Assembly (NCBI GenBank): GCA_036383775.1
Contig: DASVNP010000467.1
Location: 5,243 to 69,242, forward strand
DNA: 64,000 bases
Source: Paraburkholderia sp.
GTDB lineage: Bacteria > Pseudomonadota > Gammaproteobacteria > Burkholderiales > Burkholderiaceae
Direction of reading: 5' to 3'
Shown: positions 3,366 to 10,230 of the stretch, piece after piece
Layout: every line of letters starts with the position of its first letter
How positions within the stretch are numbered: the first letter of the stretch is position 1
Notes under the pieces: model-generated
Databases searched by the model: none
What the model saw: only the letters and a program-made list of their open reading frames with translations
What the model was told of the DNA's origin: nothing
Program-made: the position numbers and the translations under genes

Positions 3366-3953
3366 ATGGAAAGGAGACAATACACGTCCATCGCTAAGAT
3401 CCTCCACTGGACGATGGCGCTGGCGATTATCTGCGCATGGATTGCGGGGTACTACTCCAGCACGCTGAGCCTTCCGCAGAAGATTCAAGCTGACAGCATC
3501 ATGCTGCACAAGTCGATTGCGACGATCACGCTGTTCCTGCTGGCGGCACGGATTCCATGGCGGCTCACGCACGGCGCGCCCGCAGCGTCGTGCGGAGTGC
3601 CATCGCTGGAGCGCGCCGCAGCGCGTGCTGGGCATTTGCTTCTCTACTTATGCATGCTTGCACTGCCATTGTCGGGATGGCTCTGGAGTTCGGCGGCGGG
3701 ATACAAGATTCCGGTGGCCGGCCTGTTCTTATTGCCGCCATTGATGGATAAGACGCCTGCGCTTGCACCCATCTTTAAACAGGTGCACATCTACCTCGCG
3801 TATGCCATCGCTATTCTGGTTTGCGGACACGTATTGATGGCGTTGAAGCACTACTTTGTGGATCGCAGCGATTCTCTCGAGTCGATGTTGCCGTCCTGCT
3901 TTGTCCGCCGGCGCGACGGCAGCGAGCAGAAGGCGCGTTCTCCAGCGGGCTAG
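3366..3953 (+). CDS. Cytochrome b561 family protein
   Basis: Y...KILHWTMAL, LHKS, H.LLY..M..LPLSGW and GHVLMALKH heme-ligand pattern; RBS AAAGGAG. Confidence 0.9.
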   Translation: MERRQYTSIAKILHWTMALAIICAWIAGYYSSTLSLPQKIQADSIMLHKSIATITLFLLAARIPWRLTHGAPAASCGVPSLERAAARAGHLLLYLCMLALPLSGWLWSSAAGYKIPVAGLFLLPPLMDKTPALAPIFKQVHIYLAYAIAILVCGHVLMALKHYFVDRSDSLESMLPSCFVRRRDGSEQKARSPAG

Positions 3954-4012
3954 ATGTCGTCCGCCAATAAGCAAAGTGTTTCGTTCATTCGCGCGCGAGA
4001 GCGCGAACTTTT

Positions 4013-4038
4013 GCCCGGCGCAAGCCGGGTTCTTTTTT
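4013..4038 (+). terminator. Rho-independent terminator
   Basis: Hairpin GCCCGGC-GCAA-GCCGGGT followed by TCTTTTTT, downstream of the cytochrome b561 gene. Confidence 0.8.
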
Positions 4039-4111
4039 GCGCGGAGCATTAGACAGCGGCGCAAGGTCGAGTAAATCGCTCAACAACGAACGGCATCCGA
4101 TGCCGGCCGCC

Positions 4112-4273
4112 GGTATCCGGACCGCTGAAGTAGCCCCGGTCAGCCAGCACCTTCAGCTTTGGCTTGCTCATCGTGCTCTTCGCCGACCGAGCAATCCTGC
4201 TGAGTTGCCCGTGATCGCCGCCGACGTTCGTCACCTCGTGTTCGACGATCAGATGGTGCTTCGTATCCACGGC
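4112..4273 (-). pseudogene. IS1182-family transposase internal fragment
   Basis: Translates AVDTKHHLIVEHEVTNVGGDHGQL...KVLADRGYFSG, the DDE region of IS1182 transposases. Neither gene end is present. Confidence 0.75.
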
Positions 4274-4396
4274 GATCAGTGGCTTCACCGCTGTTCGCGA
4301 ACGTGTACCTGCACTACGTCTTCGATCTCTGGACCAACCGGTGGCGACGGCGGGAAGCAAGAGGCAACGTGATCATCCTGCGGTATGCGGATGACA

Positions 4397-6262
4397 GTGT
4401 GCCAAGAACGCAGGCCCCGGCGCATTGGGAACTGCGATGCTGCATGTGAGATGAGGGCGGGCCCCTCGGAGCCGGTCTGCAGGGACAGGCTTCAAACCAC
4501 CTTAAGCTGCATGGGTTAAGAGCTCGTGTGGTGAGCGTTAAGGAAAAGGCAGGGCGTGACTCTGTCAGGTACGGATCAGGAAGACGAACGCAAGTGGACC
4601 ACTGATGAAGTGTCGAAAGCATAGGGACGACGTCAAAACCGGGGGGGAGTCGTTAACCCGGGATAAGAGTGGGAGGCGACCTGCTTACTGCCCACTTGGC
4701 GTCCGGCATGAAGGTGGCGTGAGCCCGATCCAGGCGCACATGTGGAACTTGGGAACCTGTCGCCTCGATGTGAAGGGAGCGACTCAAGCGGAGAACCCGC
4801 AAGAGTCTGAGTACCGATGCGAGGCACAGGGGCGGAGCAACCCGTATGAGCGACGAAGGTTCTGTAATGGAACTGGAGCAAAGGGGTTGCATTATCCGGC
4901 CTTGAATATTGGGCCAACTTGAAAGAGGATGAGCTTGATGGACGAGGCGAAACCGTTTTGTATTCCGAAGCGCGCAGTGTGGGAGGCGTATAAACGCGTG
5001 AAGGAGAATCAGGGCGCAGCGGGAGTGGATGGGCAGACCATCGCGGATTTTGAAGAGGACTTGAGTGGTAACCTCTACAGGATTTGGAATCGGATGAGCT
5101 CAGGCAGTTACTTTCCGCCGCCCGTGTTAAGGGTTGAGATACCGAAGGACAATGGTGCGGGCGTGAGGCCCTTGGGTATACCCACTGTGTCTGACAGAAT
5201 CGCCCAGACGGTCGGGAAAAACTATCTGGAGCCGATGCTGGAGGAGATCTTCGATGAGGATTCCTATGGCTATCGTCCGGGTAGGTCGGCAAAGGATGCG
5301 TTAGGCATGGCGCGCCAGAGGTGCTGGCGTCATGACTGGGTTCTCGAGCTCGATATCCGGTCATTCTTTGATAATCTCAATCATGAACTGCTTCTGCGTG
5401 CGGTACGCCACCACACTGATTGCGAGTGGGTACTGTTGTATGTCGAGCGGTGGCTCACGGCTTCCGTGCAACTGGAGGACGGGAGCACGGTGATGCGTGA
5501 CAAAGGGACCCCGCAGGGGGGTGTGATCAGCCCGTTGTTAAGCAATCTCTTTCTGCACTATGTGTTCGATCGATGGATGCGGAAGCATTTCCCCGACATC
5601 CCGTTCGAGCGCTACGCGGACGATGCTGTTTGCCACTGTAAGACGTTGGTCCAGGCGCAGCAACTGCGCGCCGCGTTGGAGCAGCGCTTTGCGGAATGTC
5701 ATCTGGAACTGCATGCGCAGAAAACCCGGGTGGTGTACTGCAAGGACGATGATCGTCGGAGGACTTATCCTGATCACAGCTTTGACTTCCTTGGCTTTAC
5801 GTTTAGGCCACGGCACTCGAAGAACAGGTGGGGTAAGTTCTTCATTAGTTTTACTCCGGCGGTTAGCAACAAGGCTGCGAAGGCGATGCGACGCACAATG
5901 CGAAGCTGGGGCCTCCATAACAGGAGCGACAAGTCGATCGAGGATCTGGCAGGGATGTTCAACCCGGTGGCACAGGGCTGGATTAACTACTACGGCAGAT
6001 ACTACAAGTCGGCGCTCTATCCCACGTTGCGCCACCTGGACCTGGTGTTGGCCCGGTGGGCGGCGAAGAAATACAAAAAGTTGCGGGGCCACCTTCGGCG
6101 AGCCAGGCACTGGTTGGCGCGTGTAGCGCAAACCCGGCCTGGGCTGTTCGCTCACTGGAAGCTCGTGCAGCCGACGGTTGGATAATGGGAGCGGAGTGAG
6201 TCGAGAGGCTCATGCTCCGTTCTGCGAGAGCCTGGAGGTGCGATTCCTCTGGGCTACTCACC
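4397..6262 (+). mobile_element. Inner group II intron, class D (RmInt1-like), apparently complete, 1866 nt
   Basis: 5' end GTGTGC. DV GAGCGGAGTGAGTCGAGAGGCTCATGCTCCGTTC. DVI ends CTACTCACC. Precise excision restores the host reading frame. Confidence 0.93.
4929..6185 (+). CDS. ltrA: Group II intron reverse transcriptase/maturase (no endonuclease domain)
   Basis: 418 aa. GAAGVDG, RPLGIPTVSDRIAQ, SYGYRPGRSA, GTPQGGVISPLLSNLFLH, RYADD, FDFLGF and X-domain GWINYY motifs; closely resembles the RmInt1 IEP as recalled. Confidence 0.96.
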   Translation: MSLMDEAKPFCIPKRAVWEAYKRVKENQGAAGVDGQTIADFEEDLSGNLYRIWNRMSSGSYFPPPVLRVEIPKDNGAGVRPLGIPTVSDRIAQTVGKNYLEPMLEEIFDEDSYGYRPGRSAKDALGMARQRCWRHDWVLELDIRSFFDNLNHELLLRAVRHHTDCEWVLLYVERWLTASVQLEDGSTVMRDKGTPQGGVISPLLSNLFLHYVFDRWMRKHFPDIPFERYADDAVCHCKTLVQAQQLRAALEQRFAECHLELHAQKTRVVYCKDDDRRRTYPDHSFDFLGFTFRPRHSKNRWGKFFISFTPAVSNKAAKAMRRTMRSWGLHNRSDKSIEDLAGMFNPVAQGWINYYGRYYKSALYPTLRHLDLVLARWAAKKYKKLRGHLRRARHWLARVAQTRPGLFAHWKLVQPTVG

Positions 6263-6930
6263 TCGTTGTCGGCTTCGAGCACGAAGCCGACGCGCGGCTC
6301 TTCTGGGACGCGATGCGATCGAGGCTGGAAGAGTTCTCGCTTGAGCTACATCCGGACAAGACGAGGCTGCTGGAGTTCGGCCGCTATGAAGCGGTCAACC
6401 GCCAGAATCGGGGTCTTGGCCGGCCGCAGACCTTCACCTTTCTGGGTTTCATCTTTATCTGCGGCAGATCTCGTCGCGGGGCTTTCCAGTTACAACGGAA
6501 GACCCGAGGGGATCGCATGCGGGTGAGACTCAGGCAGATCAAGGAGGCGCTACGGAAGCGCATGCACGAACCGATTCCAGTGCAAGGGCAATGGCTCAGG
6601 CAGGTGGTTCGCGGATACTTCGCGTATCACGCGGTGCCTACCAACTCGCGGGCACTCGTCGAATTCCGGCATCACGTCACCGATCTATGGCGGCGCACGC
6701 TCCGGCGGCGCAGTCAGAAGGACGCCATGACGTGGGAGCGAATGAGACGAATCGCCAATGCCTGGCTTCCGCCCCCTCGAATCCTTCATCCGTGGCCTGA
6801 TCGGCGCTTCGCCGTCAAACACCCGAGGTAGGAGCCCGGTGCCAAATGTGTTCGCCAACATACTATGCCCGAATCGGGTACGCCGGGATCTGCGCGGGCG
6901 GTGTCCAGCAATGGACATTCCTACCGCGAT

Positions 6931-7422
6931 AATCTACCGATAACTCCGGGGTGCGTCGCGTCGGCAGAAGAGGCTCAATGGAACACTCTGAAAACCGCAG
7001 GCTAATAGAGTCCCCGTTGTCATCGTACTGCTCAGGCGTGCACAAGCAGGATACGACTCGCGGCACTTTAACCTGTACTCTGCCAAGTGCCGTCGAAAAG
7101 GTGCGGGAACGCCAATCCTTGATGCGCCGATAGCCGCCGCATTCCCGACAGTTCCGACGAAGCTTATCGTAGGCGTTATTCTGGTCTTGCGCCACGAGTT
7201 GTTGCAGCGTAGCTAGTAGTTCACGACCTTCGGCAAGAGATAATCCGAAATCGGCCGGGGTAGCGCCATTGACCGGGCGCTTAACGGAACAAACCGGAAC
7301 CGTCTCGTCCGTTCCCTGTCGTTGCAGCAGGATCTTCCAGCGCAGTTCCATGGCCGTCTCCCGAGTAGGTCAACTGTTGCAGTTTAGACCAGACGTGCCT
7401 CCCCCAGATTTCGTCCACTCCC
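6931..7422 (-). mobile_element. ISKra4-family IS remnant (left end plus transposase N-terminus, about 6940-7351)
   Basis: FGLSLAEGRELLATLQQ...CRECG...FSTALGRVQVKVPR..SCLC...TPEL pattern. Terminal sequence GGGAGTGGACGAAATCTGGGGG on the minus strand at 7401-7422. Truncated at the intron 3' end. Confidence 0.78.
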
Positions 7423-9386: not shown

Positions 9387-10230
9387 GGATCTGGTGCAAA
9401 TAGGTGGTCCGGGCGAGACATTTGTTATAAATACGGATGCCTTATCAATTGAAAAGGACAGCGTTCCAAACGGTAGGCGAAGCGGCGTCCATGAACCCGA
9501 GAGCGGAGAGATCAAACTGGCCCCTGCGAATGCGATGCATCAGCTCGATGCCTGAAATCGTGATCGCGACATTCTTGAACCGTTTGAAACCGAGCATCAC
9601 CTTCGTTCTCGACTTGATGTTTCGATGATCCTGCTCTATCAGATTGTTCAGATACTTCGAGTACCGCACCTTCGTGTCTGCAGGTAGCAGACCATCGACC
9701 TTCATCTCACACACGGCCCGGTGTGAGGCGGCATACCCATCGAGCGTGATCGTCTCTGGCGGCGGGCCCTGATGTTTGATCGCCCTGCTGAAAAAGGCAT
9801 TGGCTGCGGCCACATCGCGTTTCGCTCTGAGCATGAAGTCCACCGTCTGGCCAGTTCGATCTACCGCTCTGTACAGATAAACCAATTTGCCACGGATCTT
9901 CACGTAGGTTTCGTCAACGCGCCGCGACCGGCCGGCTGCCGTAGCCAAGCGATCCCAGCGCTTGACGAACTCCGGCGCGAACCGCTTGACCCAGCGCATG
10001 ATCGTCGTGTGCGCCAGAGAAAGGCCCCGTTCGGACATCATCTCGACCAGATCGCGCAGGCTCAGCTTGTAACGCAGGTACCAACGAACGCACAAGACGA
10101 TGACTTCGCGATCGAAATGTCGACGTTTGAGCAGCCTGTCAATTTTCCCCAACTCACTCATCTGTTTCGTCCTGCGCGCGTCAATAAACCCGTGAGCCTA
10201 ACCCAACCGCTTCATATTTGCGCCAGATCC
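9387..10230 (-). mobile_element. IS6-family insertion sequence (844 bp)
   Basis: Inverted repeats GGATCTGGTGCAAATA (9387-9402) and TATTTGCGCCAGATCC (10215-10230), one mismatch. No target duplication is visible. Confidence 0.92.
9445..10161 (-). CDS. IS6-family transposase
   Basis: [48 protein letters not shown]. Confidence 0.93.

Follow-up and report, generated by a model that had tools for sequence, protein, structure and literature searches.

The window, i.e., the whole stretch of 64,000 nucleotides that was analyzed from contig DASVNP010000467.1 of a Paraburkholderia sp. assembly, carries one group II intron inside the reverse transcriptase (RT) gene of another. The features at this locus are as follows.

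4112 to 4274, minus strand: transposase (DDE) fragment adjoining the truncated host intron (weak Pfam match to DDE_Tnp_1, E 0.001; borders approximate)
4276 to 4396, plus strand: 5′ remnant of the host intron RT gene, all further upstream being lost (alignment to the intact C417 allele)
4384 to 4396, plus strand: IBS2, linker and IBS1, which are the Y-A-D-D codons of the host RT plus one base (sequence)
4397 to 6262, plus strand: inner intron, a seemingly intact group II intron of class D spanning 1,866 nt (four 94%-identical relatives and B.th.I3 have this length too)
4619 to 4623, plus strand: EBS2, GCAUA (lineage consensus GCGUA), 5/5 pairs with IBS2 at −13 to −9
4648 to 4654, plus strand: EBS1, AGUCGUU, in the loop of stem 4639-4643/4657-4661, 6/7 pairs
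4711, plus strand: EBS3, A, pairing with +1 T (same position as the G of RmInt1, which faces +1 C; covaries with +1)
4938 to 6185, plus strand: RT/maturase encoded by the inner intron, 415 aa long (418 aa if begun at the ATG at 4929), endonuclease domain absent (Pfam RVT_1 and GIIM only)
6187 to 6262, plus strand: domains V and VI of the inner intron (Rfam RF00029, 51.3 bits; domain V identical in close relatives)
6263 to 6831, plus strand: 3′ half of the RT/maturase gene of the host intron, with an open frame up to the stop at 6829-6831 (weak GIIM match, E 0.0009)
6832 to 6930, plus strand: domains V-VI of the host intron, with a 26-nt insertion (6837-6862) within domain V relative to the C417 allele (comparison with C417)

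The host codons TAT GCG GAT GAC occupy positions 4384 to 4395 and are followed by A4396 and then by the inner intron, which starts with GTGTG at 4397 and ends with CTCACC at 6262, the +1 T being position 6263. Removal of the intron by its coordinates leaves the host in one frame (...IILRYADD-IVVGFEHE...). Contig C417 of this assembly carries an intact, uninterrupted host allele of 493 aa, whose DNA is 82% identical and which confirms both junctions, and contigs from three other runs that contain intron-less relatives join 4394/4396 to 6263. The segment 4397 to 6262 is thus confirmed as a complete class D group II intron nested one base past the YADD codons of another intron's RT. A preliminary description of this DNA had placed it correctly in the span 4384 to 6263, except that 6263 is the first exon base.

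The assignment to class D rests on the protein and the RNA. The protein contains the C-terminal motif LX3AX3PXLF[V/A]HW, as given in an excerpt of PMC4615759, and groups with RmInt1, away from other classes, in a protein tree; it shares 54.6% identity with the RmInt1 protein, compared with 32 to 38% with the other intron RTs of this genome. The RNA is IIB-like, with EBS1, EBS2, EBS3 and domains V and VI, and matches Rfam RF01999 and RF00029; the domain I family match spans 4453 to 4570. The same assembly contains a second class D intron with different EBS, at G000:C187:14808-16671. In addition, contig C417 carries the host-type intron in intact form, C434 an intron RT whose longer tail is HNH-like, and C48 an RT of DGR-like type.

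The host intron does not belong to class D, its protein being 38% identical to that of the inner intron. The copy found here is a relic that died for reasons other than the inner intron, namely the loss of its 5′ end and the 26-nt insertion in domain V, and the outer intron is unable to splice. The region is flanked by a transposase-like fragment without a Pfam match (6863 to 7351, minus strand) and by an IS6/IS240-type transposase (9445 to 10161, minus strand). A terminator-like site at 4013-4030, together with the lack of any recognizable sigma-70-like promoter in 3800-4950, suggests little transcription here, and the window copy is nowadays probably seldom transcribed. A 94.6%-identical relative is contained in a soil RNA library, although presence in the library does not show transcription.

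We assessed the exon-binding sites (EBS) by alignment with RmInt1, represented by a 1,884-nt locus from an S. meliloti plasmid (L197) that we take to be RmInt1 from its host, length and target. The RmInt1 stretch that pairs 7/7 with −7 to −1 and the partner of its +1 base fall at window positions 4648-4654 and 4711, in agreement with the EBS1 and EBS3 proposed earlier. Its 5-nt stretch for −13 to −9 falls one base off the proposed EBS2 at 4619-4623, whose 5/5 pairing with TATGC was upheld on recounting. In an alignment of 18 sequences, 98.9% of the cells of the stem that closes the EBS1 loop are paired, with compensatory changes. Three domain I stems taken together covary, none of 500 shuffles reaching their score and all slid controls being beaten, results that the relatedness of the sequences inflates. 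The local 141-nt fold was no more stable than shuffles (z 0.65). By chance, at least 12 of 13 pairs were formed at 94 of 2,331,160 sampled genome positions (4e-5).

Relatives were drawn from GTDB, the family, metagenomes, plasmids (15 records hand-picked from 368), viral contigs and an RmInt1-seeded phylum search; five genomes of the family search were left out of scoring. An intron was considered to carry the EBS code if it contained matches to AGTCGTT and GCGTA with at most one mismatch each, which applied to 125 of 182 intron 5′ regions. After removal of 17 without a usable 5′ exon and of 20 duplicates, 88 distinct junctions were left, including those of the window intron and B.th.I3; these rows are mutually related, and the searches that gathered them were seeded with the window intron. 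Some short-read loci unite halves of different hosts, and we therefore analyzed the 5′ and 3′ sides apart.

Eighty of the 88 code-carrying junctions lie at [YF]xDD plus one nucleotide (68 YADD, 8 FADD, 2 YVDD, 1 YTDD and 1 YCDD), and the other eight read something else. This strongly supports the earlier proposal that the lineage homes into the active-site codons of RTs. The 40 junctions outside the definition comprise 4 near-variant codes at [YF]ADD, 1 at YAD-stop and 35 that are not at YADD. None of the 35 rows with unrelated EBS is at YADD (one row was mis-called), and RmInt1 is among the rows without a called start. Pfam RVT_1 was found in 61 of the 69 5′ halves of at least 60 aa, nearly all ending at the Asp-Asp columns. 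Inspection by eye of 19 shorter halves gave 15 that were RT-like, 3 that were not, and 1 tandem copy; the short 5′ half in the window is RT by homology. In all, about 77 of the 88 junctions lie in RT genes, so that relatives with the same EBS are not found mainly in other targets. About 10 junctions lie in non-RT DNA, including a SusD gene (L034) and an epoxide hydrolase gene (L183), and one junction is a head-to-tail copy. The target is therefore a sequence, not a gene class.

The hosts are diverse. The 51 long host halves form 22 clusters at 55% identity, and group II RTs gave the best score for most of the 30 halves scanned. A retron-like RT is the host at L205/L212. At L012:1760-5014, the intron cleanly splits at YVDD a UG17 RT, a candidate defence RT, both halves of which match the PADLOC model end to end. 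The 5′ half at L146 is closest (36.7%) to the RT on contig C48; this RT, and hence the L146 host, is presumably DGR-like, to judge from its motifs. Record titles assign the code carriers to 16 phyla including one archaeal, and plasmids add Bacillota, making 17 phylum labels, although some bins are possibly wrong. In the phylum of the Methanobacterium bin, the EBS pattern occurs in 1 of 151 genomes, that bin alone. A scan of viral contigs with the inner-intron protein gave no match; the junction pattern occurs there in two contigs, both B.th.I3-like, and GenBank phages contain one 51% match.

Guide and target covary across the junctions. Position −1 is a purine in 12 of 13 junctions whose EBS1 starts with U, compared with 23 of 75 where it starts with A. 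Junctions with G as EBS3 have C at +1 in 7 of 21 cases, those with A as EBS3 in 1 of 52. EBS3 pairs with +1 in 58 of 75 cases, a count lowered in part by collapsed assemblies, in which halves of different hosts are joined. Target positions −11, −5 and −2 hold either C or T, and −8 is unconstrained. These are the third bases of the codons: a guide G lies opposite the third base of Tyr and of each Asp, and the third base of Ala is the unpaired linker. EBS2 would thus read Tyr and the first two bases of Ala, and the two G's of EBS1 would face the third bases of the Asp codons, where C and T can consequently both pair. Each synonymous position of the YADD codons is predicted in this way to coincide with a G-U wobble or the unpaired linker. 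The wobble tolerance for Asp codons suggested at the outset is therefore reflected in the junctions, and so is the YADD reading of the ideal target. The formula TATGC-N-RAYGACT needs amendment, since the IBS1 consensus with wobble allowed is RRYGRYT and the lineage usually has GCGUA as EBS2.

Of the 88 sites, 81 retain G at −15, and so do 9 of the 11 non-RT junctions, which were sorted by eye. Conservation of this G even at non-RT sites suggests that the protein probably also reads this base, which lies in the preceding Arg codon, as the RmInt1 protein reads T at −15. EBS2 of the window copy has A where the 94%-identical relatives have G. The TAT codon of the site fits this A, and the four other YADD RT genes of the assembly, the intron's own included, use TAC; this is one case and only a lead. 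With GCAUA in place of GCGUA, a TAC tyrosine codon should be lost as a target.

Taken together, comparison of the junctions makes it very probable that the intact class D intron was brought to this site by retrohoming, under the guidance of EBS loops that pair with the host YADD codons; relatives likely occupy the same RT spot because their guide loops read those codons. The lariat-protein particle would reverse-splice into the sense strand at TAYGC-N-GAYGAY-N, with EBS3 reading the second base of the codon that follows, which mostly specifies a hydrophobic residue. As the endonuclease is absent, cDNA synthesis would presumably be primed at replication forks, a route that an excerpt of PMC4615759 describes for endonuclease-less class D introns of the RmInt1 type. 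For the intron, the likely advantage lies in a common and non-essential target, one that is difficult to mutate without killing the RT and that rides on other mobile elements. The intron's own gene appears to be a slightly poorer target, which would allow occasional self-nesting: over 75 rows, its site forms 11.2 of 13 pairs on average and the occupied one 12.1, and it pairs worse than the latter in 55 rows, equally well in 16 and better in 4. The simplest reading is that of a parasite exploiting a common, conserved and non-essential landing site.

Alternatively, the intron might be a host-beneficial or competitive suppressor that breaks the RT active sites of other retroelements, much as the preliminary description had supposed that it could disable or control them. 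The insertion does cut the catalytic motif, and retron-like, UG17 and DGR-like RTs are among the hosts; repression of mobile elements was raised as a possibility by Waldern 2020 (in an excerpt of PMC7306698), and in Singulisphaera one host RT present in five copies contains the intron in all five. In contrast, among 11 RT genes chosen for their full length in four genomes with several copies of such introns, 5 carry a 13/13 target that is empty, and in 2 others the target reaches 12/13. The intron lies in the sense orientation, such that splicing would restore the host frame, and 34 of the 45 hosts with enough flank keep at least 200 codons open before and at least 150 after it. Introns of its own class are also struck (8 of the 51 long host halves), and the host in the window was disabled by other lesions. 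We therefore consider a suppressor role unlikely and do not retain the idea of control.

The YADD junctions could also stem from a single old insertion that was passed on as a composite twintron, or from survival bias for harmless sites. Identical host junctions do recur within genomes (the 20 duplicates dropped), and composites may thus move as a unit, but near-identical intron copies occupy different hosts within one genome (G303, G304), and the number of host clusters also argues against common inheritance. As for survival bias, the site is exact to the base, even though any position in an RT gene would be equally harmless. This highly improbable explanation is already largely refuted by the same-genome copies in unrelated hosts. 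Finally, an assembly artefact of two repeated introns can practically be dismissed: the assembly is fragmented (496 contigs) and some metagenome loci do show chimeric junction pairs, but the inner intron is present in a single copy, both host halves match one intact allele in frame, one run contig, possibly from the source sample, covers the whole stretch without differences, and a relative (L115) has the identical host type on both sides.

Class D introns with other guides were encountered during the survey. In a descendant at L194 (Neochlamydia plasmid pS13, 1455), EBS2 is kept and EBS1 is altered jointly with the target, which reads YAD-stop and lies outside an RT gene; from its sequence, it appears to be a case of re-targeting caught in progress. 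At L017:4287 and L060:2456, a class D intron with EBS1 CAGAACG sits where domain V of other introns ends, and it also occurs head-to-tail. Further class D introns lie directly after HLDE (L192), VTDI (L093), FIDE (L197) and VKYEEV (L057/L066/L084/L199/L200), which we take to be transposase-like motifs. A large number of RT matches in G304 and G305 break off at model positions 251-254 or begin at 123, which suggests other elements with fixed insertion places in RT genes.

The EBS code is present in most major branches of the protein trees, in proteins down to 52% identity, and other specificities are nested among its carriers; these trees are quick searches whose root is not placed, the outgroups being two other intron RTs on long branches. 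RmInt1 sits in a group with a support of 99 together with B.th.I3 and five other code carriers. At least 12 state changes are required on a tree of 54 representatives that omits two outgroups and three long-branch rows. An exclusive clade of 34 code carriers (L194 included), a group defined by EBS letters after a first tree had been seen, was rejected in an AU test (p-AU 2e-48). The main sampling was seeded with the window intron. We also rejected the notion that this intron type dominates class D: none of the 12 introns retrieved with RmInt1 as seed has the code, and 2 of the 15 retrieved in the family search do.

For the same 12 letters, repeated loss would be more economical than repeated gain. 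A single origin of the YADD-code introns with later losses fits the data, recombination of domain I being another possibility. As RmInt1 and transposase-targeting introns lie among YADD-homers, YADD homing is perhaps ancestral in class D. We put forward tentatively, with somewhat less than even confidence, the full proposal that it is ancestral to much of class D; that one 12-nt code persisted over proteins with identities down to 52% and about 17 phyla, reaching retron-like, UG17 and DGR-like RTs; and that RmInt1-like and other transposase-targeting introns derive from it by repeated re-programming, often onto other catalytic motifs (FIDE, HLDE and VTDI).

As a single locus, the window intron carries little weight, because its habit is already published and its host was already dead. 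What is possibly new is the spread of the code over 17 phylum labels rather than one clade. Its presence on both sides of the deepest class D splits sampled bears on how introns change targets, and the codon-aligned wobble offers a clear rule for the reading of a protein motif by an RNA guide in spite of synonymous changes. With UG17 and DGR-like RTs among the hosts, the intron could reach defence and diversity-generating systems. In the same tentative proposal, the reach of the code beyond introns could make it a naturally occurring means of insertion into nearly any RT gene, anti-phage ones included. Our search, whose coverage of subscription journals is thin, found no paper on the breadth or ancestry of YADD homing; on the habit itself it yielded PMC2504315 and a review that repeats it, PMC6199540.

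The closest known systems are the RYADD introns, among which M.a.I5 reportedly dates from 2003 (Dai and Zimmerly, RNA 9:14). The homing habit is not new, and the same specificity was published for B.th.I3, M.a.I5 (Methanosarcina acetivorans), UA.I3 and P.l.I2 (Photorhabdus luminescens): according to Tourasse and Kolsto 2008 (PMC2504315), these introns have the RYADD motif as their insertion site, measure about 1.8 kb, are 58-67% identical, lack an endonuclease and probably have a common origin. RYADD homing is restated for B.th.I3 in a section of the review PMC6199540. Like the window intron, they have RYADD plus one more base as target and an RT ORF without an endonuclease domain. Their hosts are RTs of other introns or a retron-like RT, whereas the window host is a dead, truncated intron. 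B.th.I3, a Bacillus thuringiensis (israelensis) plasmid intron that we named (L212) by species and published target, is likewise 1,866 nt long and is 59.5% identical over its length, with 55.9% protein identity. EBS1, EBS3 and the register of the junction are the same, and EBS2 differs at 1 of 5 positions (GCGUA versus GCAUA). In the features compared, i.e., site, size and identity, lack of endonuclease and EBS, with B.th.I3 as the sequence compared, the window intron agrees with the RYADD group. The identity range of 58-67% is not diagnostic, since RmInt1 also gives 61.1% to the window intron.

RmInt1 of Sinorhizobium meliloti shares with the window intron the class D C-terminal motif and the lack of an En domain (excerpt of PMC4615759), as well as a 7-nt EBS1, a 5-nt EBS2, a 1-nt linker and EBS3, at 61% nucleotide and 54.6% protein identity. 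In contrast, its EBS letters differ, it sits after the F-I-D-E codons of an insertion sequence and not in an RT gene, and it needs T at −15 (same excerpt), whereas the YADD-code introns conserve G there. Site-specific homing also nests one group II intron in another in the Methanosarcina arrays, the Thermosynechococcus TeI3/TeI4 pair and Trichodesmium, as described in parts of PMC4424553, PMC2882425 and PMC4649490. Unlike the window intron, TeI3 is ORF-less and inserted between two start codons according to those parts, and, unlike in the known twintrons, the outer intron of the window cannot splice. RYADD homing is thus an already published habit, to which the window intron adds a further case.
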